DNA of 64,000 bases from an uncultured Pelagibacteraceae bacterium (GCA_902567785.1 CACFOR010000004.1:25890-89889), one strand, 5' to 3'; counted from the stretch's first letter, positions 21,719 through 63,020 are shown. Notes: generated by a model not told the origin, from the sequence alone. Program-made: numbers and translations.

Positions 21719-21808
21719 GGAGAGATGGCCGAGCGGTTTAAGGCGCAGGCTTGGAAAGCTTGTGTACTGTCAAAGGTACCGTGGGTTCGAATCCCACTCT
21801 CTCCGCCA
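21719..21808 (+). tRNA. tRNA-Ser (anticodon GGA), long variable arm, CCA encoded
   Basis: Hand-folded. The acceptor is GGAGAGA/TCTCTCC. The anticodon stem is CAGGC/GCTTG with loop TTGGAAA. The T arm is GTGGG-TTCGAAT-CCCAC. Total length is 90 nt. Confidence 0.9.
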
Positions 21809-23380
21809 TTAACTCTGATCCTTTTTTTCTTGGTCTGAATTTTCCTGTTCGAGAGGTAGACCTAACCTTCTTTCTTCCATTTTTTTTAAATTTTCCCTTT
21901 CAATCTCTTTTGTTGTTTCAACTTCTTTAATTTGTATTTTTCTAGCTTCTTCTGCCCTTTGTTTTCTTTCTTGTTCTTCTTTTAATCTCCTGCTTTTCTC
22001 TTCTTCTTTTAATTTTTTTTCTATTATTCTTTTTGCCTCTTCAAGACGGTTTGATCTATCTCTTTCTATTTCTTCTATTTTATTTTTATGAATTTTATCC
22101 AATTTTCTTCTAGCTTCATTTTCTTCTGATATTCTTTTTTCTTTTAATTTATTTATTTCCTCAAGGTGTGAGAGTTTTTTTTGTTCAGCGTCATCTAATT
22201 TATTTTTGTAAGTTTGTTCCGTTTTTTCAATTAATTTTCTCTCTTCTTCAATTCCTTTTTCTTTTTTTATTTTTATTAAATTTAATTTTTTTGAAGTTTC
22301 ATCTTCATCTGCTTTTATTCTTCTTTCCTCTTCTTCTAGCAATCTTCTTTCTTCATCTTCTTCTAATTTTATTCTTTTTTCTTTTTTAATTTTTCCCTCT
22401 TCTTCTTTCAATCTCCTATTTTCTTCTAGCAATCTTCTTTTTTCTTCTTCTTTAAATCTTATATTTTCTTCCTCTTCTAATATTCTTATAGATTCTTCTT
22501 CTAAGCTTTTTTCTCTTTCTTTTAGTAATATTTGTTCATCTCTTATTTTTCTTATGATCTCATCATTTGATCTTCTTTTTTCTTCAGCTTTTAACCTTCT
22601 TTCTTTTTCTTTTTTTAAATTATTCTCTTCTTTTTCTTTTAGTATTCTGTTTTCTTCTTTTATCTTTGATAGTTCTTCTAATTCTAATCTTCTTGTTTCT
22701 TCAGCTTTAGTTTTTTTTAATTCTTTTTTTGCGATTCTTCTTTGTTTTTCTTTTTCTATTTTTTCCTTATAATGTTGATCCAATTTCCCCTTTTCTATCT
22801 GTTCTTCTTCTATTCTTTTTTCTTTTAATTTATTTATTTCCTCAATAGCTATTATGTTTTCATTTTCTATTTTTTCTAATTTTTCATTGTAAGTTTGGTT
22901 CATCTCTTCCAATTTTTGTTGCTCATCTATTATTCGCTTTTCTTTTAATTGGGAAATCCTTTCAAGTTCTCCCAGTTTTTCTTGTTCTGCTTTTGCTATA
23001 CCCTCCTTATAAATTGGATCAATTTTTTCCCGCTCTTCTTGTTCTTCTTTTGTCTTTCTCTCTTGTTCAATTCTTATAAAGCTAATTTCTTTTAATCTAT
23101 TTTCTTCCTCTTTTTTTAACTGTTTTTCTTCTTCTTTTAACTGTTTTTGTTCTTCTTTAATTTGTTTTTCCCTATTTTTTTCTTTTAATTTTTCTTTTTC
23201 CTTTTTTTCTCTTTCGCGTTTTTCTGTAAAATTTTTATAAATTTTGCCTAGAGTTTTAAATTTAAGATCTACAGCTTTTTGCAGATCTATACCCGCTCCA
23301 TTAATTTTATTTTTATTATAATTTTTGGTTTTTCTTTTTTTAACTCTCTTTTTAGTTTTTTTTCTCATAATCCCTCTCAA
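21809..23380 (-). CDS. E/K/R-rich charged coiled-coil repeat protein (function unknown)
   Basis: 523-aa uninterrupted ORF, which is unlikely by chance in AT-rich DNA. It has a basic N-terminus followed by near-continuous EEKRRLKEEE-type heptad-like sequence with three (E)INKLKEKRI..E...KLD..YK.KIE repeats. Its stop codon directly abuts the tRNA CCA. Confidence 0.6.
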   Translation of the reverse strand: MRGIMRKKTKKRVKKRKTKNYNKNKINGAGIDLQKAVDLKFKTLGKIYKNFTEKREREKKEKEKLKEKNREKQIKEEQKQLKEEEKQLKKEEENRLKEISFIRIEQERKTKEEQEEREKIDPIYKEGIAKAEQEKLGELERISQLKEKRIIDEQQKLEEMNQTYNEKLEKIENENIIAIEEINKLKEKRIEEEQIEKGKLDQHYKEKIEKEKQRRIAKKELKKTKAEETRRLELEELSKIKEENRILKEKEENNLKKEKERRLKAEEKRRSNDEIIRKIRDEQILLKEREKSLEEESIRILEEEENIRFKEEEKRRLLEENRRLKEEEGKIKKEKRIKLEEDEERRLLEEEERRIKADEDETSKKLNLIKIKKEKGIEEERKLIEKTEQTYKNKLDDAEQKKLSHLEEINKLKEKRISEENEARRKLDKIHKNKIEEIERDRSNRLEEAKRIIEKKLKEEEKSRRLKEEQERKQRAEEARKIQIKEVETTKEIERENLKKMEERRLGLPLEQENSDQEKKDQS

Positions 23381-23473
23381 ACAAAGAATTATTGTACACC
23401 TATTTTAACTGATAAAGGATACTAAATAGTTCGCTTTGGGTTTCGTAATTGAGGCATATATACCAATGTTCTC

Positions 23474-23540
23474 GGCGCAGGCTTGGAAAGCTTGTGTACT
23501 GTCAAAGGTACCGTGGGTTCGAATCCCACTCTCTCCGCCA
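23474..23540 (+). repeat. Direct repeat copy 2 of the tRNA-Ser 3' 67 nt (att core-like)
   Basis: Identical by eye to 21742..21808 (ggcgcaggcttggaaagc...ctctctccgcca). Confidence 0.9.
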
Positions 23541-23620
23541 TTAATTTAAGCTTTTCTATTCTTAAGTGTGGCGTTAAAATCGGTTTGGTCGCACTATGGT
23601 CGCAAATGAAATGAAAAAAA
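23541..23620 (+). repeat. Left (P'-like) arm, copy 1
   Basis: About 75/80 nt identical to 24557..24636. It contains GGTCGCActatGGTCGCA, two direct motifs 11 bp apart. Confidence 0.8.
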
Positions 23621-24162
23621 ATGAGAAATACTTTGTTGAGAATTCAAAAAAACTAGACGAAGCTTTTAAAATTCTAGAGTTGGAGCCCGAAACTGATATA
23701 GCCAAAGATAAAACAGAAGGTTATTTAATAGACGTTAATAAGATGGCTGAAAATATAAAAGGCGATATTATAAAAATGGCGCATTTTTTAAAAAATTTAA
23801 AAGATGTTCCAACTTATCCAGATGGTCCAATAAATGACGTTCTAAAAAAAAGATTTTTTGAAGTTTTTAACGCCATGTCAATTTATGTGTGTGCTATTAA
23901 AAAAATAAAAAATAAAGATGAAGCGATCTCAGAAATTAATCGCCATCTATATAGAGAAAAAACGTATAATGACCCAATAAACAAATTTATGATGCCAATA
24001 GCTGGTGTTTTTTTGCTAGCATGTTCAGTTTTAATGATCACAACGGACGCACCAAATATTATGAAAATTCCAGATAATAATCGTTGGTGGCTGACAGTAT
24101 TTCTTGCTGCGGTGGGTTTTAGCATCCTTGTTAGAAGTTATTGGTTTCGAAATAAAAAATGA
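23611..24162 (+). CDS. Hypothetical protein with two C-terminal TM helices
   Basis: The ORF track gives 23596..24162. The first 15 nt lie inside the conserved arm repeat, so the ATG at 23611 (MKKNEKYF...) is preferred. The C-terminus carries hydrophobic segments MMPIAGVFLLACSVLMI and WWLTVFLAAVGFSILV. Confidence 0.5.
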   Translation: MKKNEKYFVENSKKLDEAFKILELEPETDIAKDKTEGYLIDVNKMAENIKGDIIKMAHFLKNLKDVPTYPDGPINDVLKKRFFEVFNAMSIYVCAIKKIKNKDEAISEINRHLYREKTYNDPINKFMMPIAGVFLLACSVLMITTDAPNIMKIPDNNRWWLTVFLAAVGFSILVRSYWFRNKK

Positions 24163-24407
24163 AAAAGATTAAAAAAAAAACGGAAACAAAAAAGGAAATT
24201 GAAGAAAGGGTAAGAAAAGAAGAAAAAGAATCAAATTTTCGTGAAAAAAAAAGAAATAGCCACATACTCTTCATGGGGATTTTCGGTGCTATAATTGGAA
24301 TAATATTTGTTAGTGTTAAATATCCATACGCAACTACCTTTGGAATAATAGGTGGAGCTATCACTGGTGGTTTGATTGGTGCAGCGATCGGAGATCATAC
24401 TGGATAA
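24159..24407 (+). CDS. Small membrane protein with glycine-zipper C-terminus
   Basis: 82 aa with an ATGA overlap to the upstream ORF. It has a K/E-rich N-terminus, then GIFGAIIGIIF...GIIGGAITGGLIGAAIG (GxxxG repeats). Confidence 0.45.
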   Translation: MKKIKKKTETKKEIEERVRKEEKESNFREKKRNSHILFMGIFGAIIGIIFVSVKYPYATTFGIIGGAITGGLIGAAIGDHTG

Positions 24408-24408
24408 C

Positions 24409-24489
24409 GATCGCACTCTGGTCGCAATCCAACTTAAATTTTAAGATTTCTCTGTTAAATAAATATTGATTTTGCTACGTTAAAAAATT
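24409..24489 (+). repeat. Right (P-like) arm, copy 1
   Basis: About 75/81 nt identical to 26651..26731. It begins GaTCGCActctGGTCGCA and ends ...attgattttgctacgttaaaaaatt directly before the tRNA fragment. Confidence 0.8.
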
Positions 24490-24556
24490 GGCGCAGGCTT
24501 GGAAAGCTTGTGTACTGTCAAAGGTACCGTGGGTTCGAATCCCACTCTCTCCGCCA
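24490..24556 (+). repeat. Direct repeat copy 3 of the tRNA-Ser 3' 67 nt
   Basis: Identical by eye to 21742..21808. Confidence 0.9.
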
Positions 24557-24636
24557 TTAATTTAAGCTTTTCTAATATTAAGTGTGGCGTTAAAATCGGT
24601 TTGGTCGCACTGTGGTCGCAAATGAGATGAGAAAAA
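24557..24636 (+). repeat. Left (P'-like) arm, copy 2
   Basis: See 23541..23620. It contains GGTCGCActgtGGTCGCA. Confidence 0.8.
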
Positions 24637-25427
24637 TACAAAAATGCCCTGCATGTAGAAAAGCAAAAGGCGGAAAAAGAATAACACTAATTAATGCAAA
24701 ATTCGTTCACGAAAATTGCGCTGAATTTTTAGAAAACAGACCAAATGAAATTTCTCGTGAAATGAACTATCTTTATATAAAAAAAAACAGCTTAATAAAT
24801 AAAATAAAATCTATATTTAGTTTTAACCTAGAAAATAGCACTGAATTTATTGAAGCTAAGTTAACTTTATTAAGTCATGAAAGTCAGAAAATTCAAAATT
24901 TAAGAAAAAAAATTTATCACTTTTGGCCTGACTACCCGCCAGATTGGGAGGAAAGACGACAAGAAGCTTTAGAAAAAGCAGAAGAACAGTGTGAGGATTG
25001 TGGAGAATCAAAAGATTATTATGGTTTTTTGCACGTTCACCATATCAAATTCAGAGGAAGAGGTGGAAATCATAAGCCTTCAAATCTAATGGTTCTTTGT
25101 CACAACTGTCACGAGGAAAAACATGGAGGAATCACTTTCGGTGATAACAAAAAAACTTATAGACCCTCAGCTTATCCTGAACGTATAAAAACTATAAAAA
25201 AAGCAATTAAATTGAAGAAAATTGTTAATTTCACTTATTATAAAGTTAAAGAAAAAAGATTTATGAAAAGAAAAGTGAAACCTCATAAGCTAACAAAGGA
25301 AATTTTAGTTGATGGAAAAATAAAGTATATCGTTGATAATTTATATTTGGTTGGATATTGTTTTTTGAGAGAAGATAGAAGAACTTTTAGATTAGACAGA
25401 ATGAAGGGTTTAAAAATAGAAAAATGA
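24627..25427 (+). CDS. HNH endonuclease fused to a C-terminal WYL domain (N-terminal Cys-rich segment)
   Basis: The ORF track gives 24612 (GTG) to 25427; the first ATG is at 24627. The HNH core is CEDCG...HVHHIKFRGRGGNHKPSNLMVLCHNCHEEKH. The WYL-like C-terminus is VNFTYYK...RKVKPHKL...LYLVGYCFLREDRRTFRLDRM. The N-terminus has CPACRK...HENC. Confidence 0.75.
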   Translation: MRKIQKCPACRKAKGGKRITLINAKFVHENCAEFLENRPNEISREMNYLYIKKNSLINKIKSIFSFNLENSTEFIEAKLTLLSHESQKIQNLRKKIYHFWPDYPPDWEERRQEALEKAEEQCEDCGESKDYYGFLHVHHIKFRGRGGNHKPSNLMVLCHNCHEEKHGGITFGDNKKTYRPSAYPERIKTIKKAIKLKKIVNFTYYKVKEKRFMKRKVKPHKLTKEILVDGKIKYIVDNLYLVGYCFLREDRRTFRLDRMKGLKIEK

Positions 25428-25597
25428 AAACATTTGAAAAAGAATTTGAACTTAAAACTAAATTAGAAACATTAGATCACTACGTTCGATCCATACTTAA
25501 TAAATTTGATCCTGACGATGAAATAGAAGTTGATATTCAAGAATTTGATGGAAAGAAGATAGTGAACGTTAAGATATTAGATAGGGTGCTGAATTAA
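25424..25597 (+). CDS. Small hypothetical protein (57 aa, acidic), below the ORF-track size cutoff
   Basis: Hand-translated as MKTFEKEFELKTKLETLDHYVRSILNKFDPDDEIEVDIQEFDGKKIVNVKILDRVLN*. It has an ATGA overlap with the HNH-WYL stop and a TAATG overlap with the next ORF. Confidence 0.4.
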   Translation: MKTFEKEFELKTKLETLDHYVRSILNKFDPDDEIEVDIQEFDGKKIVNVKILDRVLN

Positions 25598-25830
25598 TGG
25601 ACGACAAAGATTTCAAAAAAAAGTTTGAGGAAGCAAATCCAAATATAAAACTTGTACGAAGAACAAAAGAAAGAACTGAAGCATCAGCAAAACGCGTGAC
25701 ATTTGCGTTAGGTGGAATGGGTCTATTTATATTTATGGGCATAATGTCTGGAGCACCGTTCTGGGTACATCTTGTGGTGGTTCCATTAATTGGTGCGATT
25801 TTTTATTTTGGAGCTCCAAGTGAAAAATAA
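25597..25830 (+). CDS. Small membrane protein (two predicted TM helices)
   Basis: 77 aa with a charged N-terminus followed by FALGGMGLFIFMGIMSGAPFWVHLVVVPLIGAIFYF. Confidence 0.45.
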   Translation: MDDKDFKKKFEEANPNIKLVRRTKERTEASAKRVTFALGGMGLFIFMGIMSGAPFWVHLVVVPLIGAIFYFGAPSEK

Positions 25831-26107
25831 AAAAAAACATAAATATGGAACTGGAAATATTATAGATGATTTTCCGCATTATCCCGACAATTATAGGGAT
25901 CACCGCACATATATTTATCAACTAAGTGAATCAAAAATACAAACACATCCAAATAAAAGTATGGAAGGGAAAAAACAATGGTCTGTTGTTCAATATCGAA
26001 ATGTTTTGCCACCGCGTGTAGTTAATCTTTGGAGCTTTCCAACAAAAGAAGAAGCAGAATCATTCATGAAAAAACATGATTTTGTGATCCCTTCAAAACA
26101 AAATTAA
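25790..26107 (+). CDS. Hypothetical protein (start uncertain; an in-frame GTG near 25817 would remove most of the overlap)
   Basis: 105-aa ORF with no recognisable motif. It ends TAATG-coupled to the nuclease gene. Confidence 0.4.
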   Translation: MVRFFILELQVKNKKKHKYGTGNIIDDFPHYPDNYRDHRTYIYQLSESKIQTHPNKSMEGKKQWSVVQYRNVLPPRVVNLWSFPTKEEAESFMKKHDFVIPSKQN

Positions 26108-26562
26108 TGAAAAAACTTTTAACGATCTTGGTTCTGGGCTTGTTGTTTTGCAGCAACAGTTTCGCAGATAGCCTAAGAGTAGTGGATGGCGACACAATCG
26201 TGCTCAATGGTGAGAAAATTCGTTTCTCTGGCATAGACACACCTGAATTAAAACAAACGTGCATGAAGGGAGATGAAAAGGTTTTCTGTGGAAAAACAGC
26301 AAAGATGCTTCTTATTAAAAAAATAGGCAATGAAACACCTGAATGTATCAGCGAAGGAAAGGATGCTTATAAAAGAACGTTAGCAGAATGTTTTGTTAAC
26401 GGGGAAAGTTTATCATCATATCTTGTGAGAAGTGGTTATGCTTTTGCTTATCGAAAATACTCAAAAAAATTTATTAAAGACGAAGAGTTTGCAAAAGAAA
26501 ATAAACTAGGGATGTGGGCGATGATGTTTCAATATCCATGGGATTTTAGAAAGGCATCATAA
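26107..26562 (+). CDS. Secreted staphylococcal-nuclease (SNase/thermonuclease)-like nuclease
   Basis: 151 aa with a signal peptide (MKKLLTILVLGLLFCSNSFA). It carries the SNase signature VVDGDTIVLNGEKIRFSGIDTPE, plus ...RTLAECF...LVRSGYAFAY...EEFAKENKLGMW. Confidence 0.8.
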   Translation: MKKLLTILVLGLLFCSNSFADSLRVVDGDTIVLNGEKIRFSGIDTPELKQTCMKGDEKVFCGKTAKMLLIKKIGNETPECISEGKDAYKRTLAECFVNGESLSSYLVRSGYAFAYRKYSKKFIKDEEFAKENKLGMWAMMFQYPWDFRKAS

Positions 26563-26650
26563 TAATATGCAATATTTCTTTGTTCCTATAATTGGTTTGA
26601 TTATATTCATACTTATCGTGATGCTGGTCTGAAAAAATGATAAATAATCT

Positions 26651-26731
26651 GGTCGCACTCTGGTCACAAACCAACTTCAATTTTAAGATTTTTCCGTTAA
26701 ATAAATATTGATTTTGCTACGTTAAAAAATT
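26651..26731 (+). repeat. Right (P-like) arm, copy 2
   Basis: See 24409..24489. It begins GGTCGCActctGGTCaCA. Confidence 0.8.
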
Positions 26732-26798
26732 GGCGCAGGCTTGGAAAGCTTGTGTACTGTCAAAGGTACCGTGGGTTCGAATCCCACTCTTTCCGCCA
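26732..26798 (+). repeat. Direct repeat copy 4 of the tRNA-Ser 3' 67 nt (one C>T difference at 26791)
   Basis: 66/67 identical to 21742..21808. It reads ctctTtccgcca where the tRNA has ctctCtccgcca. The downstream flank differs from the arms. Confidence 0.9.
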
Positions 26799-26826
26799 TC
26801 TGTGGGATTTTATAAAAAATAAAAAT

Positions 26827-62042: not shown

Positions 62043-62118
62043 GGCCAGGTAGCTCAGTCGGTAGAGCAGAGCCCTGAAAAGGCTTGTGTCGGCGGTTCGA
62101 TTCCGTCCCTGGCCACCA
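62043..62118 (+). tRNA. tRNA-Phe (anticodon GAA), CCA encoded
   Basis: Hand-folded. The acceptor is GGCCAGG/CCTGGCC. The anticodon stem is GAGCC/GGCTT with loop CTGAAAA. The T arm is GGCGG-TTCGATT-CCGTC. Total length is 76 nt. Confidence 0.9.
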
Positions 62119-62943: not shown

Positions 62944-63020
62944 GCAGCAGTAGCTCAGTTGGTTAGAGCACTAGTTTGTGGAACTAGGGGTCGGTGGTTC
63001 GAATCCACCCTGCTGTACCA
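62944..63020 (+). tRNA. tRNA-His (anticodon GUG) lacking an encoded G-1; discriminator A73; CCA encoded
   Basis: Hand-folded. The acceptor is GCAGCAG/CTGCTGT (G1:U72). The anticodon stem is CTAGT/ACTAG with loop TTGTGGA. The T arm is GGTGG-TTCGAAT-CCACC. The base at -1 is T. Confidence 0.9.

Follow-up and report, generated by a model that had tools for sequence, protein, structure and literature searches.

SAR11 genomes contain few recognisable mobile elements and yet hold a large flexible gene pool, and the locus described here raises the question of how gene cassettes that encode no recombinase of their own could have accumulated beside a single tRNA gene. The locus lies in a 64-kb stretch of DNA from an uncultured Pelagibacteraceae bacterium (GCA_902567785.1, CACFOR010000004.1:25890-89889), hereafter the window, which is AT-rich with 29.3% GC. 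Genes run in the order thrS, infC, rpmI, rplT, pheS, pheT, lepA, tRNA-Ser(GGA), followed by three modules that we call A, B and C (Table 1), and the order from thrS to tRNA-Ser is identical in the Pelagibacterales contigs L053 and L069. The modules are separated by a 68-nt core, GGCGCAGG...CCGCCAT, which occurs four times in the window and is the chromosomal target itself: the second and third copies match the tRNA-Ser segment at every position and the fourth at all but one. Downstream (3') of the fourth copy lie a non-arm flank and a terminator-like hairpin (26791-26807). What follows lepA and tRNA-Ser differs among contigs L013, L019, L037, L045, L047, L049, L052, L053 and L069, such that the locus combines a tRNA-adjacent hot spot, recurring tRNA 3' ends and variability between strains, as an additive island does. 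We read lepA, tRNA-Ser(GGA) and modules A, B and C as a small additive genomic island that probably arose through repeated integrations at the 3' part of the tRNA-Ser gene, a reading that shares one probability with the overall explanation given below.

Table 1. Positions in the window (counted from its first nucleotide) of the tRNA-Ser target, the core copies, the arms and the cargo of the three modules.
Feature	Position	Strand	Remarks
tRNA-Ser(GGA), intact, directly 3' of lepA	21719..21808	+	ARAGORN; Rfam tRNA 58 bits; attachment target
Core copy 1	21742-21809	+	3' 67 nt of tRNA-Ser plus one base beyond the tRNA end
Module A, distinct insertion between cores 1 and 2	21810..23473	.	without arms or heptamer pairs
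Module A, sole gene: K/E-rich 523-aa ORF	21809-23380	-	no Pfam, PHROG or PADLOC match
Core copy 2, 68 nt	23474-23541	+	68/68 against cores 1 and 3 (alignment)
Module B	23542-24489		948 bp
Left arm of B	23542..23620	+	pair GGTCGCActatGGTCGCA at 23587-23604, 46 nt from core end; ATG 23611 inside
Cassette B cargo	23611..24407	+	two membrane-protein ORFs without family assignment
B ORF 1, 183/188 aa, membrane-anchored	23611 or 23596 to 24162	+	
B ORF 2, 82-aa TM ORF	24159-24407	+	
Right arm of B	24409..24489	+	pair GATCGCActctGGTCGCA at 24409-24426, starting 81 nt before core
Core copy 3, centre of 228-bp attP-like composite 24409-24636	24490-24557	+	68/68 against core 1 (alignment)
Module C	24558-26731		2174 bp
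Left arm of C	24558..24636	+	pair GGTCGCActgtGGTCGCA at 24603-24620; HNH-WYL start codon 24627 inside
Cassette C cargo	24627..26562	+	HNH+WYL nuclease, three small ORFs, SNase
C HNH+WYL nuclease	24627 or 24612 to 25427	+	Pfam WYL 1.3e-13, HNH 1.2e-9
C small ORFs	25424-25597; 25597-25830; 25790-26107	+	
C secreted SNase-family nuclease	26107-26562	+	Pfam SNase 9.4e-17
Right arm of C	26651..26731	+	pair GGTCGCActctGGTCACA at 26651-26668
Core copy 4, distal displaced tRNA fragment	26732-26799	+	67/68; C>T mismatch at 26791

Modules B and C share more than the tRNA fragment. Their left arms (23541-23620 and 24557-24636) are identical at 75/80 positions (93.8%) and their right arms (24409-24489 and 26651-26731) at 75/81 (92.6%), a similarity that breaks off sharply at the outer border of the pair in the right arm and, in the left arm, some 16 nt past the pair. 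Each arm carries two G[AG]TC[AG]CA heptamers 11 bp apart, and the corresponding pattern, GRTCGCACTNTGGTCRCA, has only four matches in 64 kb (at 23587, 24409, 24603 and 26651), all on the + strand and all in arms, against 0 expected (no match in any of 100 shuffles of the window); the heptamer GGTCGCA occurs just six times in the 64 kb, every time within an arm. The right arm of B also bears a conserved GTTAAATAA...TTG box and a degenerate look-alike of the tRNA 5' half. Realignment thus reproduced the arm coordinates, identities and motif description of the first-pass annotation, with the pairs unique to the arms across the 64 kb, so its observation was correct; its proposal that positions 24409-24636 form an attP-like composite also held, the segment being the attachment site of a tRNA-targeting integrative element, in the order right arm, core, left arm. 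A role of the arms as an RNA element was considered and rejected, as Rfam matches were confined to tRNA fragments and the arms folded no better than shuffled versions (z from -0.14 to +1.06).

Evaluating the cargo revealed that neither cassette is equipped to move itself. No recombinase was found among the ORFs of modules A, B and C by Pfam (no integrase domain), PHROG or PADLOC, and relatives of the cognate integrase family introduced below were absent from the whole 64-kb window by tblastn and by a six-frame profile search (best E = 1.1), which bears out the earlier statement that none of the modules encodes a recombinase. B and C likewise lack a primase/helicase replication module and a packaging gene. 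The domains of cassette C have a defence flavour, with PADLOC giving domain-level matches only and no defined defence system, and its SNase shares 85% amino acid identity with the final gene of a metagenomic cassette on contig L022. Homologues of the HNH-WYL protein and of the 183-aa protein lie in surroundings that hold no cores or arms, which speaks neither for nor against mobility of the cassettes.

The left arms also reach into the genes that follow them. The first cargo ORFs of B and C begin at ATG 23611 and ATG 24627, both 6 nt past the pair, and other gene calls agree on both starts (P0135 and P0119, each 100% identical); this position within the conserved arm is the one at which the integrase gene starts in the autonomous elements described below. 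The left arm of B and C therefore supplies the start codon of the first cargo gene and probably its expression signals. The first-pass annotation had suggested that the arm provides both promoter and start region, of which the start stands for B and C; across the family, a + strand ORF follows only 13 of the 31 left arms that could be assessed, and no sigma-70 consensus was found in the left arm, which contains fewer promoter-like sites than shuffled sequence does. As there is no terminator between the tRNA and the arm, read-through from the tRNA promoter into the cassette is a possibility.

To place these two cassettes in a wider setting, metagenomes were scanned with a pattern made up of the core end, 35-55 nt and a heptamer pair, which returned 44 marine contigs of 25-36% GC carrying the core and a left-arm pair. 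All but three (L018, L044 and L051) of the 44 have the cassette-type left arm or its one-base indel variant. Counting the two of the window, 36 distinct left arms stand in exact register and align without gaps, showing a common layout of core, a near-invariant TTAATTTAAcCTTTT, about 25 variable bases that fall into three subtypes, GGTTTG and the pair. Fourteen distinct right arms, found 5' of internal cores, can also be aligned without gaps and run through CACTCTG, the pair, AATCCAA and the GTTAAATAA..TTG box to a degenerate copy of the tRNA 5' half at their end. The register is strict over these 36 + 14 arms, with the left pair placed +46 nt after the core end and the right pair -81 nt before the next core, and the 4-nt spacer within the pair is mostly (A/C)TGT on the left versus mostly CTCT on the right. 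The two heptamers of a left-arm pair are identical to each other in 30 of 36 arms where 9.8 would be expected if they were independent. This identity is real, yet relatedness and the modular reassortment of pairs and spacers confound the comparison, so it is no proof of selection.

Twelve complete cassettes with both a left and a right arm could be delimited (ten metagenomic ones together with B and C), ranging from 126 to 2174 bp and all in register. Their cargo is essentially unrelated, with two exceptions: the SNase common to C and L022, and one cassette found on both L013 and L026, where it is the first of the array in the former and the second in the latter. The smallest, on L042, is an 'empty' cassette whose 126 bp consist of left arm, a single pair and right arm with zero cargo. 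It led us to consider the pair as a site of cargo insertion, which we judged less likely than a deletion between two direct-repeat pairs, because left and right spacers differ systematically and L042 retains a left-type pair joined to the right-arm flank. Contig L020 has a left arm with no detectable right arm or core downstream. Beyond the terminal cores of the arrays, on their 3' side, come unrelated flanks, which marks the left arm as part of the cassettes and not of the chromosome.

In IMG/VR, the heptamer-pair scan produced four matches, which lie in unrelated sequence of 47-65% GC and are therefore attributed to chance, and scans with the cassette left- and right-arm blocks produced nothing or chance matches. 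When the 228-bp composite was compared with GenBank phages by blastn, only its tRNA-like part aligned, within phage tRNA-Ser genes, with no match to the arms. A scan of genome contigs with the strict pair pattern found it in no SAR11 genome, its three matches being a chance occurrence in Nocardia coding sequence and the AT-rich contigs L005 and L006; L006 contains a longer run of heptamers spaced at 11 bp. Circularised cassette junctions, which the first-pass annotation had proposed to look for, were sought among the contigs by terminal overlap and none turned up, such overlaps being positive for integrase-bearing contigs only.

It is these integrase-bearing contigs that offer a candidate for the missing enzyme. 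The same core and the same type of pair occur in elements of about 5.2-5.6 kb that encode a tyrosine integrase and an AAA_25 replication protein, and a core with an 11-bp-spaced pair lies beside a tyrosine recombinase in L018, L044, L051, L062-L068, L073, L053 and L069. In L018, L044 and L051 the order is right arm, core (lacking the tRNA 5' part, and with no tRNA called), a spacer different from that of the cassettes, pair and int. Here the right arm has 11-bp repeats of the GGACTCA/GATCTCA type, the left pair is GATCGCA or GGTCACA, and immediately after it come a ribosome-binding site and the start of a 329-330-aa ORF that is a tyrosine recombinase (Pfam Phage_integrase 5e-23). The AAA_25 replication protein has 618-640 aa, and L018 additionally encodes a small terminase subunit, terS (Pfam Terminase_2). 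An integrase with AAA_25, and terS in some, makes these elements phage-satellite-like, resembling VEIMEs and tycheposons. The partner, for which the first-pass annotation had named a phage or a larger island as examples, is thus, in the data we searched, neither a pelagiphage nor a large island but a satellite-like integrase-primase element of about 5 kb. When IMG/VR was queried with the L044 integrase, no relative turned up.

Several of these elements were observed both free and integrated. L044 begins and ends with one and the same 140 nt, so that it represents a 5.19-kb circle or concatemer; P0019-type elements form contigs of 5.4-5.8 kb in several circular permutations, with terminal overlaps of 55-168 nt in L064-L067; and tandem dimers exist of both the P0028 and the P0019 elements. 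The P0072 and P0054 elements are integrated directly after lepA/tRNA-Ser in Pelagibacterales genomes, among them the complete 1.08-Mb genome OZ247816.1 (L053), and those of L053 and L069 sit exactly between lepA/tRNA-Ser and the downstream genome. In OZ247816.1 the element reads tRNA-Ser, pair, int, AAA_25, three cargo genes, pair, 94 nt and core. Public data contain 118 homologues of the integrase (E <= 0.001); above about 45% identity they originate from marine metagenomes, with one named Pelagibacterales. Six integrase subtypes each have a repeat of 8-10 nt at 11-bp spacing located 33-40 nt upstream of the int start (TGATCGCAA, TGATCACA, ACTTGTCACA, TGGACACT, ATGCTCCA and TCGACACAC), such that the sequence of the pair varies with the integrase subtype, which lends indirect support to binding of these motifs by Int.

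How closely the cassettes and these elements correspond depends on the part compared. The GGTCGCA pairs of the window are closest to those of the L044/L018/P0019/P0028 clade. Over its final 35 nt the window core matches the cores of L044 and L018 exactly; its differences from the core of the closest integrase elements fall in the anticodon and variable-arm region. What cassettes share with integrase elements is limited to the core, the pair and the core-proximal half of the right arm, and part of that right-arm similarity is the tRNA 5'-half look-alike that both carry, which may descend from the tRNA and not from a common attP. The cassette-type left-arm spacer (TTAATTTAAcCTTTT...) was found beside an integrase for 0 of the 36 distinct arms, and across 21 integrase-bearing loci we found neither cassette arms nor a cassette adjoining the element. 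The first-pass annotation would have been refuted had the arms occurred beside no recombinase in any related genome or phage; this refutation fails, as the core and an 11-bp-spaced pair of this kind do adjoin a tyrosine recombinase in related elements.

Modelling of the integrase suggests what the pairs are for. An AlphaFold model built from a 31-sequence alignment (mean pLDDT 89.8) places three beta-strands and a helix in residues 1-45 (pLDDT 86-93), after which come a core-binding domain (Pfam Int_N, weak) and, last, the catalytic domain. Searched as a full chain with Foldseek, it matched lambda Int (1z1b/1z1g, 346-352 columns, E ~5e-11) and also Tn1549 Int; at the sequence level an arm-binding domain appeared as a weak Arm-DNA-bind_4 match in one distant homologue (E 0.03). 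In the integrases of lambda, L5 and Tn916, an N-domain of such a fold binds arm-type repeats, and the attP of heterobivalent integrases is organised around these sites: P1/P2 and P'1-3 in lambda, paired arm sites in L5 and the DR2 repeats in Tn916. The modelled integrase of the relatives has the N-terminal fold needed for binding arm sites. Like the lambda, L5 and Tn916 systems, ours joins a core shared with a tRNA to direct repeats in both arms that lie one helical turn apart, at fixed distances and unrelated to the core, and to an integrase N-domain of three strands and a helix (structural matches 1z1b, 1z1g and 6en2). It differs in that the G[AG]TC[AG]CA consensus is unrelated to the arm sites of lambda and L5, and in that one pair is evident per arm, some right arms perhaps having a third copy in inverted orientation; we identified no RDF, IHF or accessory sites. 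The heptamer pairs are thus most likely arm-type sites for the integrase N-domain, an assignment we infer from position and fold, and an added or alternative role as operators upstream of the first gene is possible.

Our preferred explanation, to which we assign a probability of roughly 60%, is that B and C are integrase-less cassettes within an additive island, that their ends are attachment arms of the type used by the SAR11 elements of about 5.2-5.6 kb, and that the integrase of those elements can mobilise them. Under this explanation, successive site-specific integrations at the 3' part of tRNA-Ser would each have added one copy of the 68-nt core. The partner elements' integrase would be heterobivalent (lambda-type), its N-domain engaging the heptamer pairs 46 nt 3' and 81 nt 5' of the core and its catalytic and core-binding domains acting within the T-arm/acceptor part of the core. 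Provided by a co-resident or incoming element, it could recombine any two cores, so that a cassette would be excised as a circle with right arm, core and left arm joined (the 228-bp composite) and then be re-inserted. Alternatively, a cassette might be co-excised with a neighbouring autonomous element (cis-mobilisation), in which case the two joined together could replicate and be packaged. Binding of Int to the heptamers, mobility at the present day and the route of transfer are the steps of this scheme that we infer.

Other explanations account for some of the same observations. That the pairs are instead iterons or an origin for the AAA_25 replication protein, or operators of a regulator of int or cargo, is suggested by the left-arm pair always standing 33-40 nt before the int start and just ahead of the ribosome-binding site, as an operator would, and the 11-bp-spaced heptamer run of L006 does recall iterons; the pair also changes with the element subtype, as do both the integrase and the replication protein. 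We consider such a role improbable as the main function, since the pairs flank the core on both sides at fixed distances in the manner of intasome arms, since the cassettes retain them while encoding no replication protein or regulator, and since the integrase, as modelled, has an N-terminal arm-binding-type domain that would require such sites. Operator and arm-site functions would be compatible in any case, because Int could autoregulate. Another reading is a simple local segmental duplication within this genome, which the first-pass annotation had named as one that would undo its own. The arms of B and C are indeed 93% identical and adjacent, but the cargo between them is unrelated, and the identical arm type surrounds many other cargos in the 44 independent metagenomic contigs, so this reading is refuted and keeps next to no probability.

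More weight attaches to the view that B and C are inert, decayed remnants of once autonomous elements that have lost int and primase, with arms persisting because they are recent or because they serve as homology anchors. Cargo would then turn over by homologous recombination across the conserved tRNA and arm blocks, as in an island of the replacement or additive type, and not by site-specific recombination. The 64-kb window yielded no integrase, no cassette was seen as a circle or adjoining an integrase element, and degenerated remnants are reported from tycheposon islands (10.1101/2020.12.28.424599). Within the family, the empty 126-bp cassette of L042 resembles a deletion between direct-repeat pairs, many left arms precede truncated ORF starts or genes on the opposite strand, and the left arm of L020 has no right arm or core that could be detected downstream. 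Neutral decay should, however, erode spacing and pairs, whereas the register (+46, -81) is exact and blocks are near-invariant over 36 and 14 arm versions around unrelated cargo. The left-arm spacer of the cassettes, moreover, forms a lineage of its own, unlike the left arm of any integrase element seen, and simple deletion of int from those elements would not yield such a spacer; in addition, one cassette occupies different array positions in L013 and L026. We therefore regard decay alone as a doubtful explanation, if one to be taken seriously, and retain mobilisable integrase-less cassettes as the better account.

Comparing these mobilisable cassettes with described systems, the nearest counterpart is the CIME, an element that keeps attL and attR after losing its genes for integration and transfer (PMC5704250) and that occurs in tandem accretions with ICEs or IMEs, as defined in the same work and catalogued in ICEberg 2.0 (PMC6323972). 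B and C resemble CIMEs in being flanked by attL/attR-type sites at a tRNA 3' end, in lacking integrase and transfer genes of their own and in standing in tandem, and by analogy their mobility would be expected solely through the integrase of a related element, which could excise, re-insert or co-excise them in the manner of CIMEs (PMC5704250). The partner here differs, being a SAR11 integrase-primase element of about 5 kb that is not conjugative, and the cassettes are tiny (0.1-2.2 kb). Because both attachment arms are kept with no integrase, we consider B and C CIME-like, and probably non-autonomous hitch-hikers of a SAR11 satellite family of the VEIME/tycheposon kind. A further difference from CIMEs is that the cassette left arm forms a conserved lineage apart, which no integrase was seen to accompany; this gives the cassettes the look of a non-autonomous lineage that is being maintained, more than of random decay products. 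Tentatively, then, they may constitute a dedicated lineage of this sort and not products of decay, MITE-like within a tyrosine-integrase system, whose own conserved arms exploit the satellite integrase and possibly its replication or packaging in an integron-like, tRNA-anchored exchange of cassettes within the most abundant marine bacterium.

The autonomous relatives themselves can be set beside two groups of marine elements. Virion-encapsidated integrative elements (VEIMEs) are described as abundant in Pelagibacter (Eppley et al. 2022, PMC9618062), and tycheposons as tandem elements parted by partial tRNAs, with degenerated remnants (Hackl et al., 10.1101/2020.12.28.424599). The elements of L018, L044, L053, L062-L069 and L073 share with them a tRNA-specific tyrosine integrase, a primase/helicase and, in some, terS, together with tandems separated by partial tRNAs, cargo and defence genes, streamlined marine hosts including Pelagibacter, and circular or concatemeric forms. 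By description, the autonomous relatives fit Pelagibacter VEIMEs and PICI-like or cargo tycheposons. B and C, in contrast, do not have the defining integrase and replication module and so are not members of these groups themselves. The text of the VEIME and tycheposon papers that was searched describes neither arm-type repeat pairs nor arm-bearing cassettes without integrase.

Two further comparisons concern the arrangement of the island. The fGI-2 of 'Ca. Methylopumilus' is an additive flexible island with tRNA-fragment repeats (PMC10872708), and it shares with our locus a tRNA-adjacent hot spot and gene cassettes parted by repeats of a tRNA 3' end. The repeats here measure 68 nt versus 20 there and are flanked in both directions by about 80 nt of conserved arm, and it is these arms beside the cores that, unlike the situation in fGI-2, point to the recombinase system responsible. 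With integrons, the locus has in common small, promoter-poor cassettes with diverse cargo, a conserved recombination unit and the implication of a tyrosine recombinase. It differs in having no IntI or attI, in that the unit is a 228-bp double-stranded attP-like composite and not a folded attC hairpin, and in that cargo may comprise several genes in either orientation. An assignment as integron cassettes was rejected on the grounds that the arms fold no better than shuffles, that Rfam recognises tRNA fragments only and that the window holds no integrase.

Tandem tRNA-anchored insertions, att-flanked elements without integrase, arm-type sites and satellite-like elements of SAR11 are all already known, and what we did not find described are this cassette family, its conserved arm signature at the SAR11 tRNA-Ser(GGA) and the way it corresponds to a defined family of integrases. 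The locus provides a concrete, sequence-defined route for small-scale gene gain in SAR11, and the matching integrase-primase elements of about 5 kb occur as circles as well as integrated into this tRNA-Ser site. The conserved arm and heptamer signature also offers a simple key for finding such cassettes in metagenomes. If they are mobilised as we propose, the cassettes would be a vehicle for defence-type and envelope genes that incurs no recombinase cost per cassette, and if the view of them as a dedicated lineage is true, each cassette would in effect ride on a satellite that in turn rides on a phage.

Comparison of cassette content revealed that the SNase-family gene is the last before the right arm both in cassette C, the window module that also carries an HNH+WYL nuclease and three small ORFs, and in the cassette of locus L022, with the two copies sharing 85% amino acid identity, whereas the cargo upstream of this gene differs between the two cassettes. 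This combination of a common last gene and differing upstream cargo indicates that within-cassette cargo is mosaic. Locus L042 has a 126-bp 'empty' cassette flanked by one core on each side; it carries no cargo, and just one heptamer pair lies between its left and right arms. Module A likewise has cores at both ends, but without left and right arms, and its sole ORF is extremely K/E-rich, with internal repeats of 24- and 120-nt periodicities in a repeat search; no family match was found for this ORF.

Coordinates of features in the window and in related loci
Feature	Locus	Position	Detail
Module A sole ORF	window	21809-23380	minus strand; 523 aa
Candidate third heptamer	window	24383-24389	AGCGATC
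SNase-family gene	window	26107-26562	cassette C
SNase-family gene	L022	893-1348	oriented cassette
tRNA-Phe	window	62043-62118
tRNA-His	window	62944-63020
tRNA-Ser look-alike	L062	3616-3703	ARAGORN
tRNA-Ser look-alike	L066	1655-1742	ARAGORN
tRNA-Ser look-alike	L053	15444-15534	ARAGORN
Empty cassette	L042	5652-5777
Tandem elements	L061	1-9298
Tandem elements	L073	1-11139
Integrase remnant	L033	1392-1457	21-22 aa
Heptamer repeats and 24-mer	L006	1800-2290	Gammaproteobacteria MAG JAQWQE010000032.1
24-mer	L005	2554-2573	Leptotrichiaceae MAG

In the circular integrase-primase elements, a near-full-length tRNA-Ser look-alike, called as a tRNA by ARAGORN, forms part of the attachment site, and only a degenerate version of the look-alike's 5' half is left in the cassette right arms. 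Many loci (L010, L013, L028, L031 and L050, and also the integrase-bearing L018, L044 and L051) carry an inverted third heptamer (TGAGTCC or TGCGATC) ahead of the right-arm pair, 5-9 nt upstream, with a weaker candidate lying before the B right arm in the window. Contigs L061 and L073 each hold two tandem integrase-primase elements, and because in both contigs the tRNA-type core and the 11-bp repeat pair (ATGCTCCA twice; TCGACACAC twice) ahead of the second integrase are different ones, their arrangement suggests heterologous tandems or concatemers. An integrase remnant, 73-90% identical to residues 244-265, sits in an intergenic gap upstream of the tRNA-Ser of contig L033.

As the tRNA-Phe/tRNA-His pair is reported to form the conserved left boundary of HVR2, a universal Pelagibacter hypervariable region (2026 preprint, 10.64898/2026.04.03.716430), the window probably ends at the HVR2 edge.

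Outside SAR11, the 24-mer ATTGGTCGCACTTTGGTCGCAAAA is identical in L006 and L005 and lies in AT-rich intergenic DNA in both. Within L006 it is preceded by 3-4 GATCAGAAATA repeats at 11-bp spacing, with a tRNA-Ser(UGA)-like 5' fragment ~130 nt away and satellite-like genes (GIY-YIG, HK97 capsid-protease, AAA_25 and Xis-like HTH) adjoining; no integrase was found inside the 8 kb of locus sequence. Given this shared 24-mer and its L006 surroundings, related integrases beyond SAR11 may use the same heptamer pair.
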